A stretch of 42,393 nt of DNA from Clostridia bacterium (lineage in GTDB: Bacteria; Bacillota; Clostridia; Oscillospirales; CAG-272): contig JAGAJV010000062.1 of the NCBI GenBank assembly GCA_017625915.1, positions 1 to 42,393 on the forward strand. The letters are read 5' to 3'. Position numbers and translations under genes: made by a program. Positions 1-41,470 of this stretch are shown in pieces. The notes beneath the pieces are model-generated. The model was not told the DNA's origin. It did not search any database and was given only the letters and a program-made list of their open reading frames with translations. Numbering within the stretch: the first letter of the stretch is position 1; each line of letters begins with the position of its first letter.

Positions 1-684
<684 letters not shown>

Positions 685-2835: not shown

Positions 2836-4365
2836 TTATACCCTTTTCCAAGCACGAGGATTAAATAAAATCAGTACCGGCAAAATTTCAAGTCTGCCAA
2901 TCAACATAGTAAATGTCAAAATCAGCTTAGAAAATGCATTATAATCTGCATATGATGCGTAAGGACCGACTGCCTCAAAGCCAGGACCTATATTAGAAAT
3001 ACAAGCCAAAGAAGCAGAAAAGTTAGAAAAGAAGCCGTGCTCGTTTACGTCACTGATAGGGTCAAAGGAAAGAAGCAATGTTGCAGTTAAAAGTATAAAA
3101 AGGTAAAGAGTAATAAAGGAGAAAACATCGTTAGTTGTCTTTTCCTCTAGGCTTTTGCCTTCAAACTTAGCCTTAGGCACATATCTGGGATTAATCAGCT
3201 TTCTTACGTTAATAAATGTACCCTTTACAGCTATAACAATTCTTGATAGCTTAATACCGCCGGCTGTGGAGCCTGCCATAGCACCGGTAAACATAAGCAG
3301 AATAAGCACCATTTTAGAAACCATCGGCCATAAATTAAAGTCCGTTGTAGAATATCCCGTTGTTGTCATAATAGATGCAATTTGAAACAGTGTATGCCTA
3401 AATGCTTCTTCAATGGAATATCCTAAGGATTCTAGCCTTAAGCACAAATTTACAAAAACTAAAGCAACACTGGATACTATGATAATTAGATAGCATCTGA
3501 ATTCCTCGCTTCTAAACACCTCTTTAATTTTACCCAACAAAATTAAATAGTATAAACCAAAATTGCAACCAAAAATAAGTAAGAAAATAGAAATTACATA
3601 TTGTGCATACGGTGTCATAAATTCCATACTGTTAGGTATAAAGCCAAAGCCACCGGTGCCTGCCGAGCCAAAGCTTGTAAGCAAAGCGTGGAAAAGCTTA
3701 TCACCCTCATAAGAGCTATAACCGGCATCGGTAAGTGCATCATGGTTAATTAATGGACCGCATAATAGGAAAATAACCTCTAAAACTGTAAGACAAAGAT
3801 AAATAAGATACAAAATTCTTGCAGTTACCTTCATTTTAGAAGCAATTTTACCCACCTGAGGACCGGGAGATTCAGCACGAAGAAGATGCATTGAGGAGCC
3901 GTCATCACTTTCAGGAATGAAAATAAGCACGAATACAAGTATTCCCATGCCGCCAATCCAGTGTGAAAAGCTTCTCCAAAATAGAGAGGAATGTTCCAAA
4001 ACAGTAATATCCTTAAGAATACTTGCGCCGGTTGTTGTAAAGCCGGACATAATTTCAAAGCAAGCATCAATGTAGTTTGGAATATCTCCATTTATAACAA
4101 ACGGAATAGCACCGAAAACAGTCATTACTATCCAAACTAATGCAACAAGTGCGAAGCCCTCTTTTTGATAAAGAGATTTTCTCTTAGGCTTAGGCTTTAG
4201 CATTAAGCCGCCCAATACCGTTAAAGCAATAATAGGAATTATAAAGGCAAGCTTATATTTTAATTCTTCCCCGTAAATAAAGCTTACGATTAATGGAGCA
4301 AGCATCAAAGCTCCCTCAATAATCATAATCCTTCCTAAAATCCTACCGATTAGTTTAAAATTCAT
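2836..4365 (-). CDS. trkH: TrkH family potassium uptake protein
   Basis: 509 aa polytopic membrane protein with TrkH-type motifs (MSGFTTTGAS, GSAGTGGFG, MTTTGY, AGSTAGGIK); RBS aaggtga. Confidence 0.85.
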   Translation of the reverse strand: MNFKLIGRILGRIMIIEGALMLAPLIVSFIYGEELKYKLAFIIPIIALTVLGGLMLKPKPKRKSLYQKEGFALVALVWIVMTVFGAIPFVINGDIPNYIDACFEIMSGFTTTGASILKDITVLEHSSLFWRSFSHWIGGMGILVFVLIFIPESDDGSSMHLLRAESPGPQVGKIASKMKVTARILYLIYLCLTVLEVIFLLCGPLINHDALTDAGYSSYEGDKLFHALLTSFGSAGTGGFGFIPNSMEFMTPYAQYVISIFLLIFGCNFGLYYLILLGKIKEVFRSEEFRCYLIIIVSSVALVFVNLCLRLESLGYSIEEAFRHTLFQIASIMTTTGYSTTDFNLWPMVSKMVLILLMFTGAMAGSTAGGIKLSRIVIAVKGTFINVRKLINPRYVPKAKFEGKSLEEKTTNDVFSFITLYLFILLTATLLLSFDPISDVNEHGFFSNFSASLACISNIGPGFEAVGPYASYADYNAFSKLILTFTMLIGRLEILPVLILFNPRAWKRV

Positions 4366-4373
4366 AATTCACC

Positions 4374-5729
4374 TTAATCAAGTATATCATTCAAGTCATC
4401 AAAATTTTTGTGTGTAGTAACAACAATAACATTATCGCCCCACTGAATACAGGAATTACCGTCAGGGATAATAACCTCATTTTCTCTTATAATGCAAGCT
4501 ATAAGACAATTTTCCTTGGTTTTTAGAGTTTTTAATGGCTTATTAAAGAATTTTTCTTGCTTTTTAGCTGAAAATTCAAGCGCCTCAACTCTATCGTTAA
4601 CTAAACGGTAAAGGGTTAAAACATTACTGCCTCTCTTATTTGTCAAGGCTCTGATATAGCTAATAATTCTATCAGCAACAATTCGCTTGGGAGAAACAGT
4701 ATTTTTAATACCAAGCTCACCAAGCATATCATAAAGCTCGTCGCTTTTAATTTGAGTAATTGTTTTGGCTACATTCATTTTATTAGCAAACATTGATACA
4801 ATCATATTTTCCTCGTCAATGTTAGTAAGAGCAACAAATGCATCCATAGCCTCAATACCCTCTTCAATGAGCAGGTCGTGCTGAGTGCCATTACCGTGAA
4901 TAATAGTAACCTTGGGAAGCATATCAGCAAGCTCCTCGGCTCTGCTTATATCACTTTCCAAAAGCTTTATGGAATATTTTTTCTTAGAAAGCTCCTCAGC
5001 AAGATAATAGCCAATTTTATCACCGCCAACAATCATAACATTTTTAAATGGCGATTTTTCAAGCTTAGCCTCAGCTAGAAAATCACGAAGAGAATTTGCA
5101 TCGGAGGTAAAGTGAACTCTATCTCCAGCCTCAAACATAAATGTACCGGAAGGAATAATAACCTCATCACTACGCTGAACAGCGCAAACAAGCACCTTAG
5201 TATTTAGCTTTTTACCAAGAGAAATAAGAGTTTCACCAATCAGGGTACAGTCCTCGTCAACAACAATCTCGGCAAGAAGCACCCTACCCTTAGCAAAATG
5301 CTCCATTTGAGAAATAGACGGTAGGTTAATAAGATTGAAAATTTCCTCAGCGGTTTCCTTTTCAGGATTTACAATCATAGAAATTCCAAGCTCGTCCTTC
5401 ATATCACTAATTTGCTGTCTGTAATCTGGATTTCTTACACGGGCAATAGTGTTCTTAACCCCTGCCTTTTTTGCAGTTAAGCAAGCAAATACATTTAATT
5501 CATCACTATTTGTAAGGAAAATAGCAAGGTCGGTGTCCTTAATACCGGCTTCCTTTTGTATATCCATACAAGCACCGTTACCAACAACACCGAAAACATC
5601 ATATTTTTCAATCATGCCCTCAACCTTTTCCTTGTTTTCGTCAATAATGGTAATTGTGTGACCCATATTAGATAAGCTTCTTAGGACAGTCTTACCAATA
5701 GTGCCTAAGCCTACAATAATAATTTTCAT
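4374..5729 (-). CDS. trkA: Trk system NAD-binding protein TrkA (tandem RCK domains)
   Basis: Two Rossmann repeats (MKIIIVGLGTIG and VMIVGGDKIG). Start moved from the ORF-track 5786 to the ATG at 5729, which is preceded by aggag and begins the canonical MKIIIVG N-terminus. Confidence 0.85.
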   Translation of the reverse strand: MKIIIVGLGTIGKTVLRSLSNMGHTITIIDENKEKVEGMIEKYDVFGVVGNGACMDIQKEAGIKDTDLAIFLTNSDELNVFACLTAKKAGVKNTIARVRNPDYRQQISDMKDELGISMIVNPEKETAEEIFNLINLPSISQMEHFAKGRVLLAEIVVDEDCTLIGETLISLGKKLNTKVLVCAVQRSDEVIIPSGTFMFEAGDRVHFTSDANSLRDFLAEAKLEKSPFKNVMIVGGDKIGYYLAEELSKKKYSIKLLESDISRAEELADMLPKVTIIHGNGTQHDLLIEEGIEAMDAFVALTNIDEENMIVSMFANKMNVAKTITQIKSDELYDMLGELGIKNTVSPKRIVADRIISYIRALTNKRGSNVLTLYRLVNDRVEALEFSAKKQEKFFNKPLKTLKTKENCLIACIIRENEVIIPDGNSCIQWGDNVIVVTTHKNFDDLNDILD

Positions 5730-8856: not shown

Positions 8857-10275
8857 ATGGCAAATATGTCCTTAAAAAGAAATGAAATGAATGTACAAGA
8901 CCCAAATGTACGAAATAAAAACTTTAAAGAGGTAGCTCTTGGTTATACCGAGGAGCAAGCTATTGACGAGGCGAAAAGATGCTTAAATTGTAAAAATAAG
9001 CCTTGCGTTGGCGGTTGCCCTGTAAAGATTTATATACCTGACTTTATTGCCAAGGTAGCAGAGGGAAAATTTGAGGAGGCATATGAGATAATTTCAAAAT
9101 CCTCATCATTACCAGCTGTTTGTGGCAGAGTTTGTCCACAGGAAAACCAATGCGAGGGCAAGTGCGTAAGAGGCATTAAGGGTGAAAGCGTTGCTATAGG
9201 CAGGCTGGAGCGCTTTGTTGCTGATTACCACAACGCAAATTGTAAGACTTGGTCCGAAAAAACAGTAAAAAACGGACACAGGGTGGCAGTAATTGGCTCA
9301 GGCCCATCAGGTCTTGCCTGTGCAAGTGATTTAGTGAAAATGGGCTATGACGTGACTATATTTGAGGCTTTACATACCGCAGGCGGCGTTTTAGTTTACG
9401 GTATTCCGGAGTTTAGACTGCCTAAGGCTATAGTTGAAAAGGAAATTAAGGGACTTGAAGCATTAGGCGTTGAAATTAAAACAAATGTAGTTATCGGAAA
9501 GACAATAACCATTGACGAGCTTATGGATGAAATGGGCTATGAGGCGGTGTTTATCGGCTCAGGCGCAGGCTTGCCTAAATTTATGAACATAAAGGGCGAG
9601 GGGCTTAAGGGAGTTTATTCTGCTAATGAATTTTTAACAAGAATGACTCTTATGAAGGCATACGAAAACGATTGCGACACACCTATAATGCAAGCAAAAA
9701 GGGTGGCAGTAGTAGGCGGTGGTAATGTAGCTATGGATGCTGCTCGCTGTGCAAAGCGTCTGGGCGCTGAGGTTTATGTTGTATATAGACGAGGTATGGA
9801 GGAATTGCCTGCCAGACACGAGGAGGTAGAGCATGCGGTTGAAGAGGGCATAATCTTTAAAACTCTAACAAATCCTATCGAAATTCTCGGCTACACAAAC
9901 GAAAATGATAAGCGCGATATTAAAAATAATACTGTTTGTGGTATGAAATGCGTAGAAATGGAGCTTGGCGAGCCAGATGCCAGTGGAAGACGCAAGCCTA
10001 TTATTAAGCAGAAAAGCGAATTTATACTGGATGTTGATTGTGTAATTATGGCATTAGGCACTTCCCCCAACCCGCTTATCAAATCAACCACAGAGGGACT
10101 CGAAACACATTCTTGGGGTGGTATTATCGCTGATGAAAACGGCAAAACCTCTCGTAAGGGTGTATTTGCAGGCGGCGACGCAGTAACGGGTGCTGCAACT
10201 GTAATTCTCGCAATGGGTGCAGGAAAAGCATCTGCAAAAGCAATAGACGAATATATAAAAACAAGTAAAATTTAG
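8857..10275 (+). CDS. NADPH-dependent glutamate synthase small-chain-like oxidoreductase (NfnB / GltD family)
   Basis: Two Fe-S Cys clusters (CLNCKNKPCVGGCP, CGRVCPQENQCEGKC) and two dinucleotide folds (VIGSGPSGLA, VVGGGNVAMD). Start set to ATG 8857, 1 nt after the upstream stop; ORF-track start 8704 overlaps the previous gene. TAG stop at 10273-10275. Confidence 0.85.
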   Translation: MANMSLKRNEMNVQDPNVRNKNFKEVALGYTEEQAIDEAKRCLNCKNKPCVGGCPVKIYIPDFIAKVAEGKFEEAYEIISKSSSLPAVCGRVCPQENQCEGKCVRGIKGESVAIGRLERFVADYHNANCKTWSEKTVKNGHRVAVIGSGPSGLACASDLVKMGYDVTIFEALHTAGGVLVYGIPEFRLPKAIVEKEIKGLEALGVEIKTNVVIGKTITIDELMDEMGYEAVFIGSGAGLPKFMNIKGEGLKGVYSANEFLTRMTLMKAYENDCDTPIMQAKRVAVVGGGNVAMDAARCAKRLGAEVYVVYRRGMEELPARHEEVEHAVEEGIIFKTLTNPIEILGYTNENDKRDIKNNTVCGMKCVEMELGEPDASGRRKPIIKQKSEFILDVDCVIMALGTSPNPLIKSTTEGLETHSWGGIIADENGKTSRKGVFAGGDAVTGAATVILAMGAGKASAKAIDEYIKTSKI

Positions 10276-10306
10276 CTAGCCTATATAGCTAGGCTAGCTT
10301 TTTTGT
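10274..10306 (+). terminator. Intrinsic terminator after the nfnB-like gene
   Basis: Stem agctagcct / aggctagct with loop atat, followed by tttttt. Confidence 0.75.
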
Positions 10307-10367: not shown

Positions 10368-12032
10368 ATGTTAAAAAAATTAATACCTATTTTTGTTTTA
10401 CTAATTTTAAGTGTCTTAATTTTATCTGCTTGTAGCGATAAATGTGAGCATAATTACATAGAAACCATAATCCCATCCACCTGCAAAAACAATGGCTATA
10501 CCCAAAGGCTGTGTGCAGACTGCGGTGATGAGCAAATATTTGATTACAAGCCCCTTTCCGGACATAGTGGAGAATGGTATGTTGCAAAGGAGCCAACCTG
10601 TCAAACAGTTGGTACAGAAGAACGACTTTGCTTAACCTGTAATACGATTTTTGAAACCCGTAGTATTACAAAGCTAGGACATGTAAGCGGTGAATGGAAA
10701 ACAACAAAAGCACCTACCTGTAAGAATACAGGCGAGGAAAAGCTGTTTTGCAACACCTGTGGCATTGACCTTGAAACAAGAGTGCTGGCGGTTACAGAGG
10801 AGCACGATTTTTTTAGTGAAGTAACCCCACCTACCATAAGCGCAGAGGGCTATACAACATATACCTGTAAAATATGCGATTTTTCAAAAAAGGACGACTA
10901 TGTGCCTAAAATTGAGGTGATTGAGGAGCTAAGCGCATCAGAAATTTACGAGCTAGCCTCAAAGGCTATGGTAAGAATTGATGCATATGATAAAAACGGA
11001 AAAAGATTTTCTCTTGGCTCAGGCTTTTTTATTAGTAACGATGGTAAAATTGCAACAAATTATCATGTAATTCAAGGCGCATATTCCTTAAAGGCAGTAT
11101 TGTATTATGACAATTCTACTCACAATGTAACAACTGTTTTAGGCTATAATTCAGCTCGTGACGTGGCTGTAATTCAAATAAATTTAACTAATACCTCACA
11201 CTTAGAGCTGTCAACTGATGAGGTTAAAACAGGTGACACTGTGTATACATTAGGAAGCCCTATGGGTATAGATAACATCTTTAGCTCAGGTATAGTTTCC
11301 AATCCTAGCAAGAAGGTTTCAGGAAACGAATGTATTGCCTTTACAGCGCCTATTTCATCGGGTAATAGTGGCGGACCGTTACTCAACAACAAGGGGCAGG
11401 TAATCGGTATAAATACTATGACCGTTACCGATTCTCAAAGTCTAAACTTTGCTGTTATGGCTAAGCAAATCACTAATTTGAATACTGAAAATGCAATCAC
11501 ACCGTCCGCTCTTTACAATAAAACAATCAGCGAAAATGCATTTGAACTACTATATCTCAATATAATGCTAAATGCACAATCGGTATCCAATGACCAATAC
11601 ATTATATACACCAATACCCCGGAAACTGCCGACAATGTAGGCACAGATACCTATTTTATTGCCGATAGCGAAAAGGAAACCGTTACAATCAGAACACATA
11701 TTGTCAAAAACGGAAAGCGTTTATATACAACTGAGCTTGTGTTAAGCGGAGTTAGAGAGCAATACTTGTTTACGCTTTATGATATTAGCTTAGGTCAGTA
11801 TGGAATAGAGTCCGCTGTAAATGCTAAGAGCCCAGCTAAGTCATACGAAGCCGATTATGAGGCTCTATTCAATATTGTCACATTTAGATATACAGATACC
11901 GATAAAGTCCCTGCTGAAAATATGAGACAGGTATATTTCTTAATGTACACTTTAACTATGGAAAGCTTAAGTAGTTATTTGAACAAATCAAATACAGGAC
12001 TTGCTCTAGCACACTTTAATTTCAATTATTAA
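10368..12032 (+). CDS. Lipoprotein trypsin-like (S1C/HtrA-like) serine protease with N-terminal Cys-rich repeats and an uncharacterised C-terminal domain
   Basis: Signal peptide with lipobox LSAC; about four repeats of P-[ST]-C-x3-G-x4-5-C-x2-C...H; protease core with HVIQG, DVAVIQ and GNSGGPLLN catalytic-triad motifs; ~180 aa C-terminal region with no recognisable motif. Confidence 0.8.
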   Translation: MLKKLIPIFVLLILSVLILSACSDKCEHNYIETIIPSTCKNNGYTQRLCADCGDEQIFDYKPLSGHSGEWYVAKEPTCQTVGTEERLCLTCNTIFETRSITKLGHVSGEWKTTKAPTCKNTGEEKLFCNTCGIDLETRVLAVTEEHDFFSEVTPPTISAEGYTTYTCKICDFSKKDDYVPKIEVIEELSASEIYELASKAMVRIDAYDKNGKRFSLGSGFFISNDGKIATNYHVIQGAYSLKAVLYYDNSTHNVTTVLGYNSARDVAVIQINLTNTSHLELSTDEVKTGDTVYTLGSPMGIDNIFSSGIVSNPSKKVSGNECIAFTAPISSGNSGGPLLNNKGQVIGINTMTVTDSQSLNFAVMAKQITNLNTENAITPSALYNKTISENAFELLYLNIMLNAQSVSNDQYIIYTNTPETADNVGTDTYFIADSEKETVTIRTHIVKNGKRLYTTELVLSGVREQYLFTLYDISLGQYGIESAVNAKSPAKSYEADYEALFNIVTFRYTDTDKVPAENMRQVYFLMYTLTMESLSSYLNKSNTGLALAHFNFNY

Positions 12033-13272: not shown

Positions 13273-13861
13273 AATTGGAATATGTGGCTCGAGTGGCTCA
13301 GGCAAGGGCTATGTATGTAAGCTTTTTTCAACCTACGGCTTTAAATGGATTGATACTGATAGAGTGTATAGAGATTTAGCAACACCAAAATCAAAATGCG
13401 TTATGGAGCTACGAGAATATTTTGGTGATAGCATATTAAACCCCGACGGAAGCCTTAATAGAAAAGAGCTTTCAAAAAGTGTATTCGAGGGCAAAAATTC
13501 TAAGGAAAGATTAAATAAGCTGAACGAAATTACTCATTTTCACATACAAATTGAAACTGAAAGAATAATAAATGAATGTGAGCAAAGTGGCTATCGAGGA
13601 GCTTTGATAGATGCACCCGTGCTATTTGAAAGTGGCTTTGATAAGCTGTGCGATATTACAATATGCGTAACTGCCCCCATAGAATTAAAGCTAAAAAGAA
13701 TAGTAAACCGTGATAATATAACAGAAGAAAAGGCAAGGGCTCGCATAAGCAATCAATTAAGTGACGATATTTTAAGAGAAAAATGCACCTACGAGATTGA
13801 TAATTCCGAGGGCGCAGATATAGAAAAGCAAATTGCGGAAATAATAGCGAAATTAAATTAG
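13265..13861 (+). CDS. coaE: Dephospho-CoA kinase
   Basis: P-loop GICGSSGSGKG, ~198 aa, typical CoaE length and layout; overlaps the upstream gene by 8 nt; TAG stop at 13859-13861. Confidence 0.85.
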   Translation: MIRIGICGSSGSGKGYVCKLFSTYGFKWIDTDRVYRDLATPKSKCVMELREYFGDSILNPDGSLNRKELSKSVFEGKNSKERLNKLNEITHFHIQIETERIINECEQSGYRGALIDAPVLFESGFDKLCDITICVTAPIELKLKRIVNRDNITEEKARARISNQLSDDILREKCTYEIDNSEGADIEKQIAEIIAKLN

Positions 13862-15295: not shown

Positions 15296-16261
15296 ATGAA
15301 GGACATTTTTGATAGGCTTCACGATTTCGGACTAGTTCCGGTTATAAAAATTACAAAGGTAGAAAACGCAGTTCCACTTGCAAGGGCATTAAAGGCGGGT
15401 GGACTTAACTGTGCAGAAATAACATTCAGAACTGCTTGCGCTAAGGAAGCAATTGCAGAAATTACAAAGGCAGTTCCTGATATGCTCGTAGGCGCAGGTA
15501 CAATTTTAACACCGGAGCAAGCAGACGAGGCAATCGAGGCAGGCTCAAAGTTTATTGTTAGTCCGGGTCTTAACCCAAGAGTAGTAAAGCACTGTCTTGA
15601 AAAGGGCGTGCCTGTATTACCGGGCTGCGCAACACCTTCCGAGGTTGAGCAGGCTCTCGAGCTCGGCTTAAAGGCAGTAAAATTCTTCCCGGCGGAGGCA
15701 GCAGGCGGACTTAATATGATTAAGTCTATGAGCGCTCCTTACGGTAGCCTAAAGTTTATGCCAACAGGTGGCATTAACGAGGAAAATATGCTTGCATACC
15801 TATCCTTCAATAAAATTATCGCCTGTGGCGGTAGCTTTATGGTTAAGGATGCACTTATTGATGCAGGCAACTTTGAGGAGATTACAAGACTTACAAAGAG
15901 TGCAGTTATGAAAATGCTGGGCTTCAAGCTAGCTCATATTGGCATTAACTGCGAAAATAAGGAAAGCGCAACAAAGAGCGCAAAGCTTATTTGCACACTA
16001 TTTGGTCTTGATTATAAGGAGGGCAATAAGTCAACCTTCTGTGGCTCAGATTTTGAGCTTATGCACACACCGTATTATGGCACAAACGGCCATATCGCAA
16101 TAGCTACAAACTTCCCGGATAGAGCAAAAGCATATCTTGAAAGCCAGGGCATTGAGTTTATCGACGAAACTGCTGGCTACGACGATAAGGGCAACCTAAA
16201 GGTTATCTATGTAAAGGAAGAAATTGCAGGCTTTGCAATTCACCTAGTTAAAAAGGCATAA
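15296..16261 (+). CDS. eda: KDPG/KHG aldolase (Eda) fused to a C-terminal VOC/glyoxalase-like domain
   Basis: N-terminal ~205 aa match Eda signatures (GLVPVIK, EITFRT, KFFPAE, PTGGI); C-terminal ~115 aa (LAHIGINC...GHIAIAT...) resemble a VOC-fold domain. Confidence 0.8.
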   Translation: MKDIFDRLHDFGLVPVIKITKVENAVPLARALKAGGLNCAEITFRTACAKEAIAEITKAVPDMLVGAGTILTPEQADEAIEAGSKFIVSPGLNPRVVKHCLEKGVPVLPGCATPSEVEQALELGLKAVKFFPAEAAGGLNMIKSMSAPYGSLKFMPTGGINEENMLAYLSFNKIIACGGSFMVKDALIDAGNFEEITRLTKSAVMKMLGFKLAHIGINCENKESATKSAKLICTLFGLDYKEGNKSTFCGSDFELMHTPYYGTNGHIAIATNFPDRAKAYLESQGIEFIDETAGYDDKGNLKVIYVKEEIAGFAIHLVKKA

Positions 16262-16269
16262 GGAATTAT

Positions 16270-17334
16270 ATGTTTGATAAACTTTTAGAAGCAGAAAATA
16301 GATTTAATGAAATAGAAAAAAGCCTTGAGGACCCGGAAACAGTGTCCAATCAACATCTTTTTACCTCTTTAATGAAGGAATATAAAAGCCTGACTCCAAT
16401 TATTGAAAAGTACCGTGAGTACAAAAAGACTCAAAGCGATATGGAGGGCGCGAAAATCCTTATGGAAGAGGAAACGGGCGAGATGTACGAAATCGCTGTT
16501 GAGGAATATAAGGACTGTAAGGCTAAAATAGAGGGAATCGAGGAGGAATTAAAAATTCTTCTCATACCTAAGGACCCTAACGACGACAAGAACGTAGTAG
16601 TTGAAATTCGTGCAGGCGCAGGAGGCGAGGAGGCAGCACTCTTTGCTTACGACCTATACAGAATGTACTCAATGTACGCACAGGCTAACAACTTTAAATT
16701 TGAGCTTACAAACGCAAACGAAACAGGCTTAAAGGGCTTTAAGGAGGTTACCTTTATGATTTCCGGAGAGGGTGCATATTCTCGCTTTAAGTTTGAAAGT
16801 GGCGTTCATAGAGTGCAAAGAGTACCTGAAACTGAATCACAGGGCAGAGTACAAACATCAACAGCTACAGTAGCAGTATTGCCAGAGGCAGAGGATGTTG
16901 AGGTTGAGCTCAATATGGGCGATGTAATTGTTGAAACCTGTAAGTCCAGTGGCGCAGGCGGATAGCATGTCAACAAAACCGAGTCAGCTATCCGTCTTAT
17001 CCATAAGCCAACGGGCATCGTAGTTGAATGTCAGGACGAAAGAAGCCAGTTCAAAAACAAGGACAAGGCATTTAAGATTTTAAGAACAAAGCTTTACGAC
17101 ATAAAGGTTCGTGAGCAAAATGATAAAATTGCATCAGAGAGAAAAAGTCAGGTCGGTACAGGTGATAGAAGTGAAAAAATCAGAACCTATAACTATCAGC
17201 AAAGCCGTGTAACAGACCACAGAATTGGCTATACAATTTATTCTCTTGAAGCATTTTTAAATGGCGATATTGGCGAAATGCTGGAAAAGCTGGCAACAGC
17301 CGATGCTGCCGAAAAGCTAAAGGGCGGAAACTAA
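16270..17334 (+). CDS. prfA: Peptide chain release factor 1, reading frame interrupted by an in-frame TAG at codon 232 (the GGQ glutamine position)
   Basis: One continuous frame of 354 sense positions: RF1-type recognition region [26 protein letters not shown], then [37 protein letters not shown]..., TAA at 17332-17334. TAG occupies 16963-16965. The ORF track stops at 16965. Confidence 0.9.
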
Positions 17335-25246: not shown

Positions 25247-26659
25247 ATGAGGAAAAATATGAGCTTTGTAAGTATTGAAGAAATGAAAAAGCAGGGGCTC
25301 TTTATAGATAATGTACGCGCTCAAATTGAGGGCAAGGGACTAAAGGCTTGCGTTTTTACTCTTGGCTGTCAGCAAAACGAGGCAGATAGCGAAAGAATGA
25401 GAGGCATTTTAAAAAGCCTGGGCTATGAAATTACCTATAAGGAGGACGAGGCAGATTTACTGCTTGTAAATACCTGTGCAATAAGAGAGCATGCCGAAAG
25501 ACGAGCGCTCTCAATTGTAGGCAGATATAAGCATTATAAAACTAAAAATCCCGACCTTATTATAGGTGTATGCGGTTGTATGACTGCACAGGAGCATAGA
25601 ATAGAGCATTTTAAGCATTCCTACCATTATGTAGATTTCGTATTTGGCACAGGCACTATGTATCGTTTGCCTGAATATGTATCAAACGCACTAAATAAGG
25701 GCAAAAGATTATTTACAATCGACCCACAAGCCCCGGAAATTGCCGAGGGTATTCCTGTTGTGCGTGAAAGCAATTATAAGGCTTGGGTAAGTATAATGTA
25801 TGGCTGTAATAATTTCTGTACATATTGTATTGTGCCATATGTAAGAGGCAGAGAAAGAAGCCGTAAAATGTCCGATATATTAGAGGAAATTAGAGGGCTG
25901 GCTAGCGAGGGCTATCACGATATAACCTTGCTTGGTCAAAATGTAAATTCCTATGGTAAGGATTTAGAGGGAAGTCCGACTATTGCAGATTTGCTTAACG
26001 AAATTGCAAAAATAGATGGCGATTTCCTTATCCACCTAATGACCTCACATCCTAAGGACGCATCTGACAAAATGATAGAAGCACTTAAAAATAATCCGCA
26101 CTGCGCAAACTGCTTCCATCTACCGTTACAGTCCGGCTCTGATGCGATTCTTAAAAAAATGAACCGTCACTATGATACCGAAAGATATCTCTCAATAATA
26201 GACAAATTACGCGAAAATAGAGAGGATATGGTATTAACCACCGATATTATTGTAGGCTTCCCTGGGGAAACAGACGAGGATTTTGAGAAAACAATTGAAA
26301 TTATTAAAAAAGTAAAATATGACTCAATCTTTAGCTTTATTTATTCACGAAGAAAGGGAACACCTGCCGATAAAATGGAGGACCATATTTCCGAGGAAAT
26401 AAAGCATAAAAGGTACGACCGTCTATGTGAGGTACAAAACGAAATTGCCCATGAGCTAAATGCGAAATATATGGGTAAAATCCTTCGCGTGCTGGTGGAC
26501 GGAAAAAGCAAAAACAACGAAAGCGTATATACCTCACGCACAGAGGGTGGCAAAATAGTCCACTTTGAAAGCGACAAGGATTATACAGGACAGTTTATTA
26601 CGTTAAAGATCAGTCGTACAGATACCTTTGCACTGTACGGTGAAATATATAAAGATTAA
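25247..26659 (+). CDS. miaB: tRNA (N6-isopentenyl-A37) methylthiotransferase MiaB
   Basis: UPF0004 domain Cys (TLGCQQNEADSE, VNTCAIRE, GVCGCM), radical SAM CNNFCTYCIVP, TRAM C-terminus. Alternative start ATG 25259 is possible. Confidence 0.9.
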   Translation: MRKNMSFVSIEEMKKQGLFIDNVRAQIEGKGLKACVFTLGCQQNEADSERMRGILKSLGYEITYKEDEADLLLVNTCAIREHAERRALSIVGRYKHYKTKNPDLIIGVCGCMTAQEHRIEHFKHSYHYVDFVFGTGTMYRLPEYVSNALNKGKRLFTIDPQAPEIAEGIPVVRESNYKAWVSIMYGCNNFCTYCIVPYVRGRERSRKMSDILEEIRGLASEGYHDITLLGQNVNSYGKDLEGSPTIADLLNEIAKIDGDFLIHLMTSHPKDASDKMIEALKNNPHCANCFHLPLQSGSDAILKKMNRHYDTERYLSIIDKLRENREDMVLTTDIIVGFPGETDEDFEKTIEIIKKVKYDSIFSFIYSRRKGTPADKMEDHISEEIKHKRYDRLCEVQNEIAHELNAKYMGKILRVLVDGKSKNNESVYTSRTEGGKIVHFESDKDYTGQFITLKISRTDTFALYGEIYKD

Positions 26660-27108: not shown

Positions 27109-29688
27109 ATGACTCAAATGATGCTACAATATCTCGAGATAAAAAAGCAATATAAGGATTTTATATTGTTTTACCGTCTTGGAGATTTTTATGAAATGTT
27201 CTTTGATGATGCTATAACTGCATCAAGAGAGCTAGAGCTAACCTTAACAGGAAGAGATTGCGGCGAAAAGGAAAGAGCGCCAATGTGTGGCGTGCCTTAC
27301 CATAGCTGCGAGGGCTACATTGGTAAGCTTATTTCCAAGGGCTATAAGGTTGCAATATGTGAGCAAATGGAGGATCCCTCACAGGCAAAGGGTATTGTAA
27401 GGCGTGAGGTTGTAAGAGAAATCACTCCGGGCACGGTTATTGAAACCAATCTTTTAACTGAAAATAAAAACAACTATCTATCTGCCCTCTATTTTGAGGG
27501 TGCATATGTAGGCGTATGCTTTGCCGATGTTTCAACAGGCGAAATTTACGCAACAAGCATAGAAAAGGAGCAAGCTAAGCTCTTAAATGAGCTTGGCACA
27601 TACTCTCCCAAAGAAATTATAACAAATCTACCAAAGCTTGCGGGTGGCTATATTCAGGAATTTGCAAAATCAAGAATAGGCGCGCTTTGTGGCTTTGAAA
27701 TGGTAGAATATTTTAACGAGTCCGAGTGCAAGGACAGAGTAAACGCACAATTCGGCGAGGAATTTTTAAATAAATATGGCTCTGATAACCATTTAATTTG
27801 TGCAATAGGCGCAATTTTAGAGTACATACTAAAAACACAAAAAACAGATATTTCATATATCAACAATATTAATGTTTACGGCGAGGGACAGTATCTTGAA
27901 ATGGATTTAAATACCCGCCGCAACCTAGAGCTATGCGAATCTATGAGGACCAAGGAAAAGCGCGGAAGCCTTTACTGGGTTCTTGATAAAACAAAAACAT
28001 CAATGGGCGCAAGAATGCTACGCCATTTTGTTGAGCATCCACTAATTGATGTTAAGAAAATCATAGCTCGTCAAGGCGCTATAACTACATTTTATTCCAA
28101 TATGGTCTTAAGAGACGAAATTTCAAGGCTTTTATCAAATGTACTTGACCTTGAAAGACTTATGACTAAGGTAGTATATGGCACAGCAAACGGAAAGGAT
28201 GCAAGAGCAGTTGCATCAACAATTAAAGTAATTCCTGAAATTAAAAATCTACTCTTTACAGTAAACGATAAGGAGCTAAACGAAATAAGAGATAACCTTG
28301 ACGACCTGACGGACATCTTTACTCTTATTGACGATATGCTGGTAGATTTACCGCCATTTTCCATAAGAGAGGGTGGAATGGTCAAGGACGGCTACAGCAA
28401 AGAGGTTGACTATCTACGAAGCGTAATGAGCGACGGTAAGGGCTGGATTGAAAAAATCGAAGAGGCAGAAAGAAGCGCAACAGGAATTAAAACACTTAAA
28501 ATAGGCTATAACCGAGTTTTCGGATATTATATAGAGGTAACAAAATCCTTAATTTCTCAAGTACCGGATAGATATATAAGAAAGCAAACTCTATCCAACT
28601 GCGAAAGATATATAACAGAGGATTTAAAAAATATGGAAGCCACAGTTTTAGGCGCAAACGATAAGCTTTGCAATCTGGAATATGAGCTTTTTGTACAGTT
28701 AAGAAGCAAGCTTGAAGAAAATCTTAAGCGAGTTCAAAAATCAGCAAACATGCTAGCTCGTCTTGATACATATATTTCACTTGCCGAGGTAGCAATTAAA
28801 AATAATTACACCTGCCCTGAGGTTGATTATAGCGATGTAATTGACATTAAGGACGGTCGTCACCCTGTTGTTGAGCAATTTGTAAAGGATAGCTATTTTG
28901 TACCAAACGATACCTACCTGAACACTACAACTGACCGTCTGGCGCTTATCACAGGACCAAATATGGCAGGTAAATCAACATATATGCGTCAAAGCGCGTT
29001 AATAGTTTTAATGGCGCAAATTGGCTCATATGTTCCTGCAAAGCAAGCAAGAATAGGCATTGTAGATAAGCTGTTTACAAGAGTAGGCGCATCAGACGAT
29101 TTAGCATCAGGTCAATCAACCTTTATGCTTGAAATGAACGAGGTTGCATATATTCTTGAAAATGCAACCAAAAAGAGCTTTATTATCTACGACGAAATAG
29201 GCAGAGGCACATCAACCTACGACGGTATGAGCATCGCAAGAGCAATTGCAGAATATACAGCAGGCAAAAAAATCGGCGCTAAAGCAATGTTTGCAACCCA
29301 CTATCACGAGCTTACCTCACTTGAAAATGGCTCAAACGGTATTGTAAACTATAATATCGCAGCCAAAAAGCGTGGCGAGGACATTATATTCCTTCGCAAA
29401 ATCGTTAAAGGACCAACTGACGATAGCTACGGTATCGAGGTTGCCAAGCTGGCAGGCGTGCCAACCGAGGTTGTAAAGCGCGCAAAGGCTGTCCTTGCCG
29501 AAATGATTGAAAACGGAGTAGTTACCGAAAAAGCGCCAAAAGCAAAAACAACCGAGATAGGTATGGAAATGTCCTTTGAGGATATGAGTGTTTACGAGGC
29601 AGCCGACAGAATTAAAAAGGTAGACCTAAACACCCTTACCCCAATCGAAGCTATGAACTTTATATTCGAGCTTAAAAAATTATTTTAG
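27109..29688 (+). CDS. mutS: DNA mismatch repair protein MutS
   Basis: N-terminal TQMMLQYLEIKKQY...FYRLGDFYEMF, Walker A GPNMAGKST, DEIGRGTSTYDG; 859 aa; TAG stop at 29686-29688. Confidence 0.95.
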   Translation: MTQMMLQYLEIKKQYKDFILFYRLGDFYEMFFDDAITASRELELTLTGRDCGEKERAPMCGVPYHSCEGYIGKLISKGYKVAICEQMEDPSQAKGIVRREVVREITPGTVIETNLLTENKNNYLSALYFEGAYVGVCFADVSTGEIYATSIEKEQAKLLNELGTYSPKEIITNLPKLAGGYIQEFAKSRIGALCGFEMVEYFNESECKDRVNAQFGEEFLNKYGSDNHLICAIGAILEYILKTQKTDISYINNINVYGEGQYLEMDLNTRRNLELCESMRTKEKRGSLYWVLDKTKTSMGARMLRHFVEHPLIDVKKIIARQGAITTFYSNMVLRDEISRLLSNVLDLERLMTKVVYGTANGKDARAVASTIKVIPEIKNLLFTVNDKELNEIRDNLDDLTDIFTLIDDMLVDLPPFSIREGGMVKDGYSKEVDYLRSVMSDGKGWIEKIEEAERSATGIKTLKIGYNRVFGYYIEVTKSLISQVPDRYIRKQTLSNCERYITEDLKNMEATVLGANDKLCNLEYELFVQLRSKLEENLKRVQKSANMLARLDTYISLAEVAIKNNYTCPEVDYSDVIDIKDGRHPVVEQFVKDSYFVPNDTYLNTTTDRLALITGPNMAGKSTYMRQSALIVLMAQIGSYVPAKQARIGIVDKLFTRVGASDDLASGQSTFMLEMNEVAYILENATKKSFIIYDEIGRGTSTYDGMSIARAIAEYTAGKKIGAKAMFATHYHELTSLENGSNGIVNYNIAAKKRGEDIIFLRKIVKGPTDDSYGIEVAKLAGVPTEVVKRAKAVLAEMIENGVVTEKAPKAKTTEIGMEMSFEDMSVYEAADRIKKVDLNTLTPIEAMNFIFELKKLF

Positions 29689-31723: not shown

Positions 31724-32860
31724 ATGCTAAAGATACTTAAAAAAGATGGCAGAGCAAGACGCTGTACCTTTGAAACTGTACACGGAACGATACAAACACC
31801 TGTATTTATGAATGTAGGCACCTGTGCCGCAATCAAGGGCGGTATATCCTCAATGGACTTAAAGGATGTAAAATGTCAGGTTGAGCTATCAAATACCTAT
31901 CACCTACACATTCGTCCGGGAGATAAGCTAATTCACGACTTAGGTGGACTTCATAAGTTTATGAATTGGGATAAGCCAATTTTAACAGACAGTGGTGGAT
32001 TCCAAGTGTTTTCACTTGCACAGTTACGCAAAATCACCGAGGAGGGTGTAAAATTCGCATCTCATATTGATGGTAAGCGTATATTTATGGGCCCTGAGGA
32101 ATCAATGCAAATTCAGTCAAACCTGGGCTCTACAATAGCTATGGCATTTGACGAATGTATTGAAAACCCTGCCAAATACGACTATACAAAGCAGTCCTGT
32201 GACCGCACTGTAAGATGGCTAAAGCGCTGTAAGGTGGAGCTGGATAGACTTAATTCATTACCGGATACTATAAACAAGCATCAAATGCTTTTTGGTATCA
32301 ATCAAGGAAGCACCTATGAGGATTTAAGAATTAAGCATATGCAGAAAATAGCTGAGCTAGACCTTGACGGATACGCAATAGGCGGTCTTGCCGTAGGCGA
32401 GGAAACTGAGGAAATGTATCGCATAATCGACATCGTTGAGCCTCATATGCCCGAAAATAAGCCAAGATACCTAATGGGTGTAGGCACGCCTTGTAATATC
32501 CTTGAGGCAGTACACCGTGGCATAGATTTCTTTGATTGTGTAATGCCATCAAGAAATGCAAGACACGGCAACCTCTTTACTTGGCACGGTAAAATGAACA
32601 TAATGAACGAGAAGTACCGTGACGATTCTCGCCCAATAGACGAAAATTGCGAGTGTCCTGCTTGTAAGCATTATTCAAGAGCATATATAAGACACCTAAT
32701 CAAAGCCAAGGAAACACTTGGAATGCGTCTATGTGTGCTCCATAACCTCTATTTCTATAACAACCTTATGGAAAAAATCAGAGAAGCACTTGATAACGAC
32801 TATTTTGAAAGCTTCTACCAAAAATATCGCAATATCTTAGGCGAGCGTAGCACTAATTAA
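31724..32860 (+). CDS. tgt: Queuine tRNA-ribosyltransferase
   Basis: TPVFMNVGT, LTDSGGFQ, GLAVGE, zinc site CECPACKHYSRAYIRHL. Confidence 0.95.
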   Translation: MLKILKKDGRARRCTFETVHGTIQTPVFMNVGTCAAIKGGISSMDLKDVKCQVELSNTYHLHIRPGDKLIHDLGGLHKFMNWDKPILTDSGGFQVFSLAQLRKITEEGVKFASHIDGKRIFMGPEESMQIQSNLGSTIAMAFDECIENPAKYDYTKQSCDRTVRWLKRCKVELDRLNSLPDTINKHQMLFGINQGSTYEDLRIKHMQKIAELDLDGYAIGGLAVGEETEEMYRIIDIVEPHMPENKPRYLMGVGTPCNILEAVHRGIDFFDCVMPSRNARHGNLFTWHGKMNIMNEKYRDDSRPIDENCECPACKHYSRAYIRHLIKAKETLGMRLCVLHNLYFYNNLMEKIREALDNDYFESFYQKYRNILGERSTN

Positions 32861-32905
32861 CAATTAGCAAGCTTGTAGGGGATGGTGCCCTCGACGTCCC
32901 GTAAA

Positions 32906-32958
32906 AAAGAAAGAAACAAATTATGACAAACAATTTTATGTGCTTTCAAAACTGAAGG
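32906..32958 (+). repeat. Upstream duplicate of the RBS and first codons of the deacetylase gene (contains a 10-codon mini-ORF at 32923-32955)
   Basis: 32906-32942 matches 33017-33053 with 1 mismatch in 37 nt, offset 111 nt; similarity continues in degenerate form to 32958 / 33070. The mini-ORF encodes MTNNFMCFQN then stop. Confidence 0.7.
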
Positions 32959-32965
32959 TATATAA

Positions 32966-33010
32966 AGGCTCCTTTGTGTAAAGGGAGCTGTCAGCGAAGC
33001 TGACTGAGGG
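32966..33010. repeat. REP-like double-hairpin intergenic element (copy 2)
   Basis: AGGCTCC-n10-GGGAGCTGTCAGC-gaa-GCTGACTGAGGG; same architecture as 29694-29764. Confidence 0.5.
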
Positions 33011-33033
33011 ATTGTCAAAGAAAGGAACAAATT

Positions 33034-33858
33034 ATGACAAACAATTTTATGTGTTATCCAAATTGGAAGGAAAAAGCATTAACCTTCAGCTACGATGACG
33101 GAAACATTAAGGATAGAGACCTAGTAGCGCTATTTAACAAATATAATGTAAAGGGCACATTTAACCTAAACAGTGCAATATTTTCAGAAAATGGAAAAGA
33201 AGATAACATTTCAAGAACCGAGGTTAAGGACTTATATAAGGGACACGAGGTTGCTGTTCATACAGTTACACACCCTCGCCTGGAGCTTTTACCAAGCAAT
33301 CTTATTACCTGGGAAATAACTGAGGATAAAGCAAGCCTTGAAGCACTATCCGACACAATTGTGCAAGGTATGGCGTACCCATTCGGCACATATAGCGACG
33401 AGGTTGTTGAAATCTGTGAAAAAGCAGGAATTAAATATTCAAGAACAGTTCATTCAACACATAATTTTGATGTAACCTACGACTGGCTAAGAATGCCTGC
33501 AACCTGCCACCACGCAGACGATAAGCTTTTTGCGCTTGCAGAAAAATTTGTAGCAGGCTCACCAAGCCTAGAGCGCTTCAAATATACAGGCTGGCTATTC
33601 TATGTATGGGGACACTCATACGAATTCAGAACAGAAGAGGACTGGCTCCGTATGGAGGGCTTTGTTTCAATGGTAGCAAACCGTGAGGATACATGGTATG
33701 CAACCAATATTGAAATTTATGAATATGTACAGGCATTCCGTAGCCTTGTTTACTCACAAGACGCATCTAAGGTATATAACCCATCTGCACTCCCTGTTTA
33801 TATGCTTCATAACTCCAAAAAATATGTTATCAAACCAGGCGAAACAGTAACATTTTAA
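33034..33858 (+). CDS. Polysaccharide deacetylase (CE4) family protein
   Basis: LTFSYDDG (Asp-Asp metal/catalytic motif), HTVTHP, AYPFG motifs. Confidence 0.8.
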   Translation: MTNNFMCYPNWKEKALTFSYDDGNIKDRDLVALFNKYNVKGTFNLNSAIFSENGKEDNISRTEVKDLYKGHEVAVHTVTHPRLELLPSNLITWEITEDKASLEALSDTIVQGMAYPFGTYSDEVVEICEKAGIKYSRTVHSTHNFDVTYDWLRMPATCHHADDKLFALAEKFVAGSPSLERFKYTGWLFYVWGHSYEFRTEEDWLRMEGFVSMVANREDTWYATNIEIYEYVQAFRSLVYSQDASKVYNPSALPVYMLHNSKKYVIKPGETVTF

Positions 33859-34971: not shown

Positions 34972-35666
34972 ATGAAAAAGTATAAATATCAAATGCATAT
35001 CCACACAGCTCCTTGCTCAGCCTGTGGTCAAATGTCACCTAAGGAGCTATGCCAATCACTGCACGAAAACGGCTATCAGGGAACAGCGTTAACAAATCAT
35101 TTCTATCACGGCAATTCAGGCATAGATCGTAGCCTCTCGTGGAATGATTTTGTATCAGCCTACGAAAAGGATTATAATGAATGCTTAGAGGAAGCAAGAA
35201 AGTATGACCTAGACATAATTTTTGGCATTGAGGAGGCGGTTGTCCCAGGACTTGAGCTTCTATGCTATGGCATAACTCCAAAAATCCTTTATGATAACCC
35301 TGAGCTGCAAAACTGCTCACTTGAGGAATTTGTAGAAATAATGCACAAAAACGGTGCGGTTCTTATCCAAGCTCACCCATTTAGAGAAGCATTTTATATT
35401 CCCAATCCCGGACATTTGCCGGTTGAGCTAATCGACGGAGTGGAAATTTATAATAAAGGAAATTCTACCGAGGAAATGAACCAAAAAGCACTTGCTTTTG
35501 CAAATGAGCATCCGCATTTAATTAAAACCTCAAGCGCCGACGCACACACCACTGATCGGGTTATGTTTGGTGGAATTATAACGGAAAAGCGCATTAAAAG
35601 CTCGCAAGAATTAGCCGAAGTACTTCGCGCAGGCAGCTATCAGTTAATTATTCCCGGGGAAGAAAT

Positions 35667-38480: not shown

Positions 38481-38775
38481 AAACAAAAATGACTAAGTCG
38501 GCAACACGGTCCCGTGTGTCGGGCTTAGTCATAGGTGGTCGAGATGACAGGAAGCATCGCAATAAATTGCTCGTAACACTTCGCGCGCAAATCGTGAGCG
38601 AGCTCCCATTTGCTTCGCTCGCTAGGCGCACCTGATTCAACTTGCGTTGAAAGCAGATGCGAACAGTCAACACAAACAAAAAAATCCTAAACCGAACATA
38701 AAGTTCAATTTAGGATTTTTATGGTCGAAGTGGCGATACCCGACTCGAACCTGCCAGAAAAAGTGTTTTGAAGCC
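38481..38775 (-). ncRNA. Unclassified structured-RNA-like element, copy A (core 38535-38727)
   Basis: 193-nt core about 93% identical to 41733-41927. On the minus strand: a 12-bp hairpin with U7, then a 4-way junction (P1 GCAUC/GAUGC, P2 UUCAAC-GCAA-GUUGAA, P3 GUGCGC/GCGCGC enclosing AGCGAGC/GCUCGCU, P4 short variable hairpin), then its own terminator (38491-38530 plus U-run). Overlapping ORF 38479..38679 judged non-coding. Confidence 0.6.
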
Positions 38776-38994: not shown

Positions 38995-39333
38995 TCATTT
39001 TTCTATAAAGTTTACATTATTTGCACATATTTGTATATTATGATAAGAGCCAGTGACATCACTTTCAACACAAATATTAATTGAATTGTCTAATAATTCA
39101 ACCTTTACTATTTCATCGCTATTGATTTTGTAATTGTCATATGTGCAATTAGAACAATTAGAAAACTCAATTAGAACAATTCCGGTTTCTTTTTCACCAT
39201 CTTCAAAGGATGATTGTTGCCAATAGCAGAAATCAATTTCGAGACAAACGATATTGGCTGCTTTATCATAAGAAATGTCTTCAAGCAAACTACCTATTAG
39301 ATAGACTTTATTTATAAATTCTTTTATTGTCAT
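38995..39333 (-). CDS. Small acidic cytoplasmic protein, candidate immunity/antitoxin partner of the upstream gene
   Basis: Start moved to ATG 39333 (MTIKEFINK...), preceded by aaaggagg, 13 nt after the upstream stop; 112 aa, no signal peptide, no recognised family. Confidence 0.5.
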   Translation of the reverse strand: MTIKEFINKVYLIGSLLEDISYDKAANIVCLEIDFCYWQQSSFEDGEKETGIVLIEFSNCSNCTYDNYKINSDEIVKVELLDNSINICVESDVTGSYHNIQICANNVNFIEK

Positions 39334-39346
39334 TGTATACCTCCTT

Positions 39347-39682
39347 TTATGGTATAATGTGAGAAGCTTTTGAGTTTTTTGGCACGGGATTACCATTTTT
39401 ATCTAAATAATAATCGTGTTTTCCAGTGGAGTTGGGATTTAAAACATGGTAGTGGTCTTTTCCACCGTAGCCTCCTTGAGAGGCATCTCCTTTATCATAC
39501 CTTATGCTTAATCCATCTTTGTTTGTGTACATTTTTGAAGTAGTATTTTGCGACATACTAACAGGTGTAGTTTCTTTCCAGCCTTTTTCCAAAAGTTTAT
39601 TGGGATTTTTAGGCAAACTTTTTATAGTGGAGCGAATAGCACCACGAGAACCCGAATATCCTCCTGACATTCCTGAACCCAT
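39347..39682 (-). CDS. Small (111 aa) Gly/Ser-rich-N-terminus protein resembling a stand-alone polymorphic-toxin C-terminal domain
   Basis: MGSGMSGGYSGSRGA... then GW...LSIRYDKGD...GGKDHYHVLNPN...YYLDKNGNPVPKNSKASHI. The layout recalls small nuclease/RNase toxin CT domains (weak, by eye). ATG overlaps the upstream stop (TAATG), with an RBS aggagg inside the upstream gene. Confidence 0.5.
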   Translation of the reverse strand: MGSGMSGGYSGSRGAIRSTIKSLPKNPNKLLEKGWKETTPVSMSQNTTSKMYTNKDGLSIRYDKGDASQGGYGGKDHYHVLNPNSTGKHDYYLDKNGNPVPKNSKASHIIP

Positions 39683-40353
39683 TATAAATTCCTCCTTCGT
39701 TTAGTACTTATCCAGTCCGGATAGTTTACAAAGTCGGTTTTGTGCTTGAATTCATCAAATACGGAATTGGGCATAGCTCCGTAAACAAGTACAACTGTCG
39801 GTTCCAACTCATCAAGCATGGCTTTTAGACCTTCTCTAAAGTAGTGCTTGTTTTCTTGTCCTCTAATACAGCCATATGTGCTAATTGACACAATACTACG
39901 TTTGGGAACGCCTAAAAACGCAAACTTTTCAGGCAATTCTGTGGTGGTATAGCTTCGTTCATCTCCCCAACGAATATTTGGAATAACATATAACCCTTGC
40001 GCTTGCAAAAAGCTTCCAACTGCTCGGTTCATATATGTGTTTGCAATTTGCAAGCACAGAGGCATATCTCTATATAGAGAACAGTCTGGAGATATAATTG
40101 CAGAGAACTTCGAGAGCTCTGATAAGAAATTTTTTGTGCTTGTTAAAACATCAGAAAATTTTATATCATGCTCGTAAAAGTGAACGGCTTCAGTTTTGTC
40201 TTTGCTTCGTTTGATTTGAGTAAAAGGAATAACGGATTTTGGAATTATAATTTTATCGGGTTTTTTAATAACTGGTATTTCAAAAATACCATCAAAAAAA
40301 GCACTAGAAACGAGTTCGGAATTGAACCCATCATCTACTAAGTTTTTATTCAT
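39682..40353 (-). CDS. DUF4417-like protein, function unknown
   Basis: 223 aa; pattern HFYEHDIKF...ISPDCSLYRDMP...NRAVGSFLQAQGLYVIPNIRWGDERS...VSISTYG recalled as DUF4417-like, from memory and not verified. Confidence 0.55.
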   Translation of the reverse strand: MNKNLVDDGFNSELVSSAFFDGIFEIPVIKKPDKIIIPKSVIPFTQIKRSKDKTEAVHFYEHDIKFSDVLTSTKNFLSELSKFSAIISPDCSLYRDMPLCLQIANTYMNRAVGSFLQAQGLYVIPNIRWGDERSYTTTELPEKFAFLGVPKRSIVSISTYGCIRGQENKHYFREGLKAMLDELEPTVVLVYGAMPNSVFDEFKHKTDFVNYPDWISTKRRRNL

Positions 40354-40419
40354 GATATGTAACCTTTCTCCTCTAATAAAGAGGGATTTTTATTTTTAAA
40401 ATAGTTTAAAAAAGGGTAG

Positions 40420-40462
40420 GCTAAAACATATCATACGACTAAGTAGTGTGCTTTAGCATATC
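40420..40462. repeat. 43-nt direct repeat DR2 (partner at 38891-38932)
   Basis: About 85% identical to DR1, located 67 nt upstream of the DUF4417-like start codon. Confidence 0.7.
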
Positions 40463-40483
40463 CTTGCAATATTGGTTTTTGTT

Positions 40484-40521
40484 TTGTCAAGAGTAGTTGG
40501 CGCTAATCTTGACATTGTCAA
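40484..40521. promoter_or_regulatory. Cluster of TTGTCAAG / CTTGACA / TGTCAA half-sites including the perfect palindrome TTGACAtTGTCAA (40509-40521); candidate repressor operator
   Basis: Inverted repeats in the 200-nt gap between the ImmA gene and the DUF4417-like gene. Confidence 0.4.
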
Positions 40522-40556
40522 CAATCATAGTACATCACTCCTTTTAAAGTTTGTTT

Positions 40557-41081
40557 TTAATATTTTAATCTTTTTTTAGCAGCGGATTCAGAAACCCCAT
40601 ATGTGTTCATTAGTTCATTGATAGTCATGTTTTGAGTTGATTCATATGGCATCATAACTTCACCAGCTAGAGCCATAACTATCCATTCTATCCTTTTGTA
40701 TAAAGGAACATCTTGAGTTAGTTGACGAGAGAAAACAGGTTTAAAACCAAGCTTGTCAGCGAATGCATGCATGATTTCGTGCATAATATGCATGCGATGT
40801 CCACCTACCTTTTTTTCAAACGCTCCATTATAAACTGATTCCTTTATTTGAATTAGGTAGCCACTATCGTCAACAGAACATTGTGCGGGAACGTTTTTAG
40901 GTAAAACATTATTGTAAACAACATCATATCGCACATCTTCAAATCCTTCAAAATCAGGGAGCTTATCCAATAACTTTACAGGATCGACAGGTTCGTTTTC
41001 AGATAGTCCACAGATTGAACGGAACAATTTAGAATAAAGTCGAAGCTCATAACGGTTGGTTGCTTTAGTTTCGTAATCCAT
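40557..41081 (-). CDS. ImmA/IrrE family zinc metallopeptidase
   Basis: HEXXH motif (MHIMHEIMHAF), 174 aa, translationally coupled (TAATG) to the upstream HTH gene, the classic ImmR-ImmA arrangement. Confidence 0.8.
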   Translation of the reverse strand: MDYETKATNRYELRLYSKLFRSICGLSENEPVDPVKLLDKLPDFEGFEDVRYDVVYNNVLPKNVPAQCSVDDSGYLIQIKESVYNGAFEKKVGGHRMHIMHEIMHAFADKLGFKPVFSRQLTQDVPLYKRIEWIVMALAGEVMMPYESTQNMTINELMNTYGVSESAAKKRLKY

Positions 41082-41443: not shown

Positions 41444-41470
41444 ATTCATTCTCCTTTCCTGTTTGATTCA

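Follow-up and report, generated by a model that had tools for sequence, protein, structure and literature searches.

The amber codon that interrupts the gene for peptide chain release factor 1 (RF1, prfA) in this stretch of DNA is probably a one-base C-to-T discrepancy that is peculiar to a single MAG contig, in an organism whose RF1 is normal. The window, by which we mean the whole analysed stretch of 42,393 nucleotides, is one complete NCBI MAG contig. Within the window, the interrupted gene encodes RF1 and TAG serves as a stop codon, and the TAG at the catalytic position is a singleton among the genomes that were compared. From these observations we infer that the T at position 16963 is an error and not a mutation of a living strain.

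The window and its prfA gene

By its Pfam annotation, the window belongs to the chromosome of a Clostridia bacterium with low GC (37.6%) and is a housekeeping region of the ordinary kind, with gap, ktr/trk, cotJ, nadK, nfnAB-like genes, coaE, the gene for an M18 peptidase, eda, prfA, sua5, a gyrA/parC-like gene, dcuC, tspO, a miaB-like gene, ylbF, mutS, mutL and tgt. The relatives of the window are MAGs from ruminants and other gut sources, with the labels Clostridia, Eubacteriales or Oscillospiraceae. The window proteins with strain-private missense alleles (P0121 and P0131) are present on one NCBI contig only, which indicates that no independent assembly of the same strain exists. The protein look-up returned no NCBI-derived RF1 protein for the prfA locus of the window; most probably, the TAG is part of the deposited record, in which the locus would stand without a protein.

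Two direct repeats of 175 nt (38558-38732 and 41758-41932), which are 94% identical and lie 3.2 kb apart, bracket a cassette with a DUF4417 protein, an ImmA/IrrE-like M78 peptidase and three small unknown ORFs (38995-41449). Each repeat terminates in a hairpin-forming palindrome. The genes of the cassette, which has the appearance of a small mobile or integrated element, are called in conspecific contigs too.

The features of the prfA frame are listed in Table 1, together with similar lesions on other contigs that are described further below. The local translation around codon 232 reads KSSGAGG followed by the TAG, and no other internal stop is present in the frame. With the Gln restored, the protein reached 498 bits against NF001859, where the cutoff is 400, and 490 bits against the TIGR00019 prfA model, where it is 423, in the HMM search, while the RF2 model gave 285, which is below its cutoff of 370. 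Thus, the protein has both the full-length equivalog match and the PxT tripeptide, here P-E-T, a motif that is established as RF1-specific. The gene order eda-prfA-sua5-gyrA/parC-like is the same in all conspecific contigs, where prfA is called as a gene for 354 aa. These results bear out the preliminary description, which had identified the gene as prfA, had assigned codon 232 to the Gln of the GGQ motif (a placement that translation and alignment both support) and had considered the C-terminal part intact up to the TAA: the 122 codons that follow the TAG contain no further lesion. Only in this contig is the motif not written in sense codons, since it reads GGC GGA TAG.

Table 1. Features of the prfA frame of the window, and bacterial release factor genes on other contigs that carry a lone TAG at the GGQ position.
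Feature	Position	Strand	Basis
prfA (peptide chain release factor 1) frame, 354 codons, single interruption	16270-17334	+	translation, HMMs, synteny
CCT GAA ACT = P-E-T, RF1-type PxT stop-codon recognition tripeptide, codons 186-188	16825-16833	+	sequence
GGC GGA, both Gly codons of the GGQ motif	16957-16962	+	sequence, alignment
TAG, codon 232, replacing CAG, the Gln of GGQ; C>T at 16963	16963-16965	+	sequence, conspecific comparison
122 codons 3' of the TAG, intact and identical to conspecific RF1	16966-17331	+	translation, comparison
TAA, natural stop of prfA	17332-17334	+	sequence
Lone TAG in an RF1 gene, contig L107 (GC 54%)	4633-4655	-	
Lone TAG in an RF2 gene, contig L110 (GC 60-65% with L117)	458-480	+	
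Lone TAG in an RF2 gene, contig L117 (GC 60-65% with L110)	3219-3241	+	

TAG as a terminator in the window

TAG ends six of the 35 other long ORFs in the window. Among these are the four stops, at 1404-1406, 10273-10275, 13859-13861 and 29686-29688, on which the preliminary description had based its statement that TAG is a real stop in this DNA, and each of the four was confirmed. Additional support comes from a terminator hairpin at 10274-10299, which lies directly at the TAG stop 10273-10275, and from the orthologues of CoaE in related species, which stop at approximately the same place by means of TAA (18), TGA (7) or TAG (4). When TAG was read as sense, five of the six other TAG-ended genes gained just 12-22 junk codons, and ktrB would extend by 222 codons into a separate gene in the same frame (735-1394).

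No further in-frame TAG was present elsewhere in the 42-kb window. The tRNA and Rfam scans of the window and of the conspecific flanks found no tRNA with a CUA anticodon, the sole tRNA in the window being tRNA-Leu(GAG), and the Rfam scan detected no recoding element in either the window or the flanks. The pattern of a reassigned codon, that is, several in-frame TAGs at conserved positions in a genome that does not use TAG as a terminator, is therefore not seen here. The earlier judgement that a genome-wide reassignment of TAG is unlikely agrees with these data, in which six ORFs end in TAG and a single TAG is found in frame over 42 kb.

Conspecific assemblies and related species

The window was compared with a conspecific set of 11 independent assemblies from ENA/SPIRE ruminant-gut re-assemblies, from Logan and from NCBI (GCA_965126865.1), which share 98.6-99.8% nucleotide identity with it. 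The motif reads GGC-GGA-CAG in all 11, and an RF1 of 354 aa is called in each of them. In three assemblies (L081, L083 and L084), the whole 1,065-bp prfA differs from that of the window at position 16963 alone, where they have C and the window has T, in agreement with the earlier remark that TAG is one C-to-T change away from CAG. For the 80 related species, which were represented by species-representative genomes with 62-96% protein identity, the codon was CAG in 77 matches and CAA in 4; there are 81 matches because one locus contributes two. TAG thus occurs in 0/11 conspecific assemblies and in 0/80 related species, so that the relatives carry CAG or CAA only, no TAG lineage is seen among them, and the codon is not conserved in the way a recoding codon would be. 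By this comparison, the TAG at codon 232 is a singleton, which makes it either an isolated error or a private mutation.

The exact look-up in protein and gene collections (~15 billion proteins) did not return the truncated product of 231 aa. The intact RF1 of 354 aa (P0001) is present on four other contigs, which come solely from Logan and ENA. P0001, with its Q at position 232, was also considered as a tool artefact or as the product of gene calling under a code in which TAG specifies Gln, and this origin was rejected because the Logan/ENA contigs in question have CAG.

A contig of Candidatus Monoglobus merdigallinarum (L073, DXIJ01000048.1) contains two RF1-type GGQHINK matches, at ~2592 and ~3700. 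They lie ~1.1 kb apart on one strand and have near-identical flanking peptide, and the pair is either a tandem duplication of prfA or a duplication introduced by the assembly.

Private variants of the contig

Approximately 42.1 kb of the window was covered by at least three conspecific samples, and a base was regarded as private if it occurred in no other assembly. The 27 private variants comprise 17 synonymous, 6 missense and 3 intergenic changes and 1 nonsense change, which is the TAG in prfA; the conspecific comparison revealed no private frameshifts in window genes. Transitions were represented by A>G (7), C>T (6), T>C (5) and G>A (4). A C>T excess of the kind caused by DNA damage was considered and rejected, since the spectrum of the private variants is balanced. 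Judged from its variants, the contig looks like that of a real and separate strain on which purifying selection acts strongly. Against such a background, the outlier is the stop codon, which falls on the most invariant residue of a gene that is normally essential.

The location of the change at a Gln codon is a smaller coincidence than it might appear. There are 13 single-base transition routes to a stop codon in prfA, and all 13 are at Gln codons (7 CAG>TAG and 6 CAA>TAA). Consequently, the chance that a nonsense change by transition falls on codon 232 is 1 in 13, which makes the placement less striking.

Some of the private SNPs are clustered. Three fall within 6 bp (10514-10519), three within 4 bp (35007-35010), and four synonymous ones within 109 bp just upstream of prfA (15919-16027). 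From this clustering, the SNPs seem to have been brought in on short tracts by recombination with a more divergent lineage, and not to have arisen as separate point mutations.

Gene-breaking or length differences that are limited to single assemblies were seen elsewhere in the data set too. ERZ28654397 scaffold_1797 (L081/L086/L123) has 101 extra bases in the miaB-like radical-SAM gene, at a place that corresponds to ~25796-25832 of the window, and its gene is split into ORFs of 200 and 263 aa, whereas the gene is intact, with 466-470 aa, in the window and in the other contigs. The spacer between tgt and a polysaccharide deacetylase gene contains an intergenic tandem repeat with a unit of 111 bp (window 32860-33034; L123 11183-11441). 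L123 has 2.3 copies of it, the window has one unit fewer and L127 has about one more, a difference that reflects either real variation or collapse of the repeat during assembly.

Readthrough context of the TAG

The preliminary description had pointed to the C that follows the TAG as a weak context for termination. The C is indeed present, but it is not a designed feature: the +4 base after the GGQ codon is C in every RF gene that we examined, because the invariant His codon (CAY) begins with it. The RNA structure of the 120 nt downstream of the TAG was no better than that of shuffled sequences (z = -0.55). Neither the fold nor the +4 base, which the His codon dictates, thus provides the dedicated cis stimulator of a programmed recoding site.

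TAG at the GGQ position elsewhere

A metagenome collection was scanned for TAG at the GGQ position with the pattern GGNGGNTAGCAYRTNAAYAARAC, which would match the window's own sequence as well. The scan returned 28 matches, and the window's own TAG allele was not found in this collection; the scan of the viral collection returned 0 matches. After translation, ~17 of the 28 proved to be RF1 homologues with many in-frame TAA and TAG codons at Gln positions, a pattern that matches the ciliate-type codes in which TAA and TAG specify Gln and so appears to represent a known reassignment. Another 8 were chance matches. The remaining 3 were bacterial genes that are otherwise intact and have a lone TAG at GGQ; one of them encodes RF1 (L107) and two encode RF2 (L110 and L117), and their contigs are unrelated. 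In the lineage of L107, the database search recovered dozens of intact RF1 proteins of 357 aa with 97-100% identity and no truncated RF1, and within the range of that search the L107 TAG is an isolated singleton in its lineage. Because UAG is not self-referential for RF2, and because RF1 is not enriched among these genes, they provide an internal control, which points to background lesions or errors. Outside the codes in which TAA and TAG specify Gln, the metagenome scan thus found TAG at the GGQ of class-I release factors in three scattered singletons only, a small negative result that should be of general use.

The RF1-like genes rich in TAA and TAG are located on low-GC environmental contigs (L094, L095, L098, L099, L102, L104-L106, L108, L111, L113-L115 and L118-L121), and their in-frame stops occupy, among other Gln positions, those of GGQ and of RVQRVP. 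Most likely, these genes are nuclear and encode the organellar RF1 of eukaryotes that use a ciliate code.

Explanations for the TAG in prfA

In the explanation that we favour, the T at position 16963 would be a base error of the consensus or of the assembly, or a minority variant that was picked up where coverage was low. The true prfA of the species would read GGC-GGA-CAG and would encode an ordinary RF1 that terminates normally at UAG and UAA, and no recoding, autoregulation or codon reassignment would be needed. An error is suggested by the CAG in 11/11 conspecifics, three of which differ from the window at one base of prfA, by the CAG or CAA in 80/80 related species, and by the fact that the product of 231 aa is unrecorded while the intact P0001 occurs on four other contigs. 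It is also consistent with the position of the nonsense codon as an outlier among private variants that are under purifying selection, with the scattered bacterial singletons that affect RF1 and RF2 without enrichment of RF1, and with the presence of other single-assembly differences in the same data set (the 101-bp insert and the 111-bp unit). On the other hand, the contig looks clean in other respects, without private genic frameshifts and with balanced transitions, so that it does not appear to be generally error-ridden. Furthermore, the change is a transition at a Gln codon, and no other class of nonsense change would let a near-cognate Gln restore the wild-type protein; it thus has the look of a real mutation that can be survived.

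This last point leads to the explanation, which we regard as unlikely although it deserves some weight, that the TAG is real: a living strain of the rumen or hindgut would have acquired this private nonsense mutation very recently and would tolerate it by autogenous suppression. As RF1 falls, near-cognate Gln-tRNA(CUG) would read the gene's own UAG more often and would yield RF1 with the wild-type GGQ; the cell would settle at a lower level of RF1, with leaky termination at UAG throughout the genome. If this were true, the window would contain a natural RF1/UAG counterpart of supK, the autogenous suppressor that involves prfB and UGA, and the UAG in the RF1 gene of one contig is, as in supK, a non-conserved in-frame stop that is cognate to the encoded factor. 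The remainder of prfA is intact and identical to that of the conspecifics, and the other variants of the contig resemble genuine strain divergence and not noise, both of which would be expected of a living mutant. However, the allele is found in one assembly only, and a comparable frequency of this TAG lesion is seen in RF2 genes, in which the mechanism cannot operate. GGQ-mutant release factors could moreover be dominant-negative. In E. coli that lacks RF1, Gln is inserted at UAG, and so are Tyr, Lys, Trp and Glu (PMC4333366); the latter four would yield an inactive factor if placed at the catalytic Gln. Loss of RF1 can be survived under some conditions, but in Salmonella RF1 is essential unless RF2 is amplified or mutated (PMC7530605).

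The other explanations are considerably weaker. It is very improbable that the window holds a decaying pseudogene copy and that the genome has another, intact prfA that supplies the function. NCBI apparently has no protein for the locus, which would agree with a pseudogene, but the lesion is a single one, the gene otherwise shows 100% identity with the functional copies of the conspecifics and lies at a conserved syntenic locus, and there is no sign of relaxed constraint. A programmed, evolutionarily maintained readthrough site, through which RF1 would autoregulate its own synthesis, can hardly be entertained. It has in its favour its conceptual elegance and the position of the codon, whereas the TAG is conserved at no depth, the sequence downstream shows no significant structure, the C after the TAG is forced by the His codon, and the scans gave no viral matches and only scattered bacterial singletons in both RF1 and RF2. 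The preliminary description had offered two interpretations, and they fare differently: a sequencing error or recent nonsense mutation accords with the singleton status of the TAG among the conspecifics, but the self-referential recoding site fails by the refuting condition that the preliminary description had itself set, since the TAG is absent from the 11 conspecifics and from the 80 related species. A conserved UAG at the Gln of the RF1 GGQ, if it existed, would add a new class to the known forms of translational autoregulation and would offer a natural way for UAG to become reassigned; the genomes compared here show that, as far as they represent it, this lineage has none. Equally hard to credit is the idea that TAG specifies Gln in this organism, in a code like code 15 or that of ciliates, and that prfA is intact as written. 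Although recurrent TAG at GGQ was seen only in genes of that kind, the ciliate-type RF1 homologues in which TAA and TAG specify Gln throughout, this reading is already contradicted by the 6/35 other long ORFs that end in TAG at orthologue-supported positions, one of them with a terminator, by the lack of a second in-frame TAG in 42 kb and of a tRNA(CUA) in the window or flanks, and by the CAG at codon 232 of the conspecifics.

Comparison with known systems

The closest likeness of the TAG in the window is to the single-lesion "internal stop" pseudogene calls of draft and MAG assemblies. In these, too, one base is affected in an otherwise perfectly conserved gene, the lesion is absent when the species is assembled from other data, and the locus has no deposited protein. 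We see no difference of substance between such calls and the TAG in the window, which most probably belongs to this category and is not novel biology. The lesson is that single-base lesions in MAGs can fall on spectacular sites and that a conspecific comparison is needed before recoding is claimed.

supK is reportedly an in-frame UGA in prfB (RF2) of an enterobacterial laboratory mutant whose phenotype has been demonstrated. The likeness consists in a stop codon that lies inside a release factor gene and is read by the gene's own product, so that a low level of the factor leads to more readthrough; furthermore, supK arose by mutation and is not a conserved feature. It differs from the window in that it concerns RF2 and UGA, while the window has UAG in RF1, at the catalytic Gln, in one metagenome assembly. 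An opal mutation in prfB and its autogenous suppression are the subject of Kawakami & Nakamura (PNAS 1990), as cited in PMC5373646. The autoregulation of prfB by a programmed +1 frameshift (Craigen & Caskey 1986, described in PMC5373646) likewise makes the factor limit its own synthesis through the stop codon that it reads. However, conservation of the prfB site extends to most bacteria, and the site is stimulated by an internal SD and the slippery CUU-UGA-C (PMC5373646), whereas the TAG in the window is shared by no relative, and the fold of the sequence after it gave no stimulatory structure. Finally, the codes in which TAA and TAG specify Gln, that is, the ciliate-type nuclear codes and code 15 of phages, are the sole setting in which TAG was found to recur at the Gln of GGQ. 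Genes in these codes have many in-frame TAA and TAG codons at Gln positions, in contrast to the window, where TAG occurs in frame exactly once and otherwise serves as a terminator.
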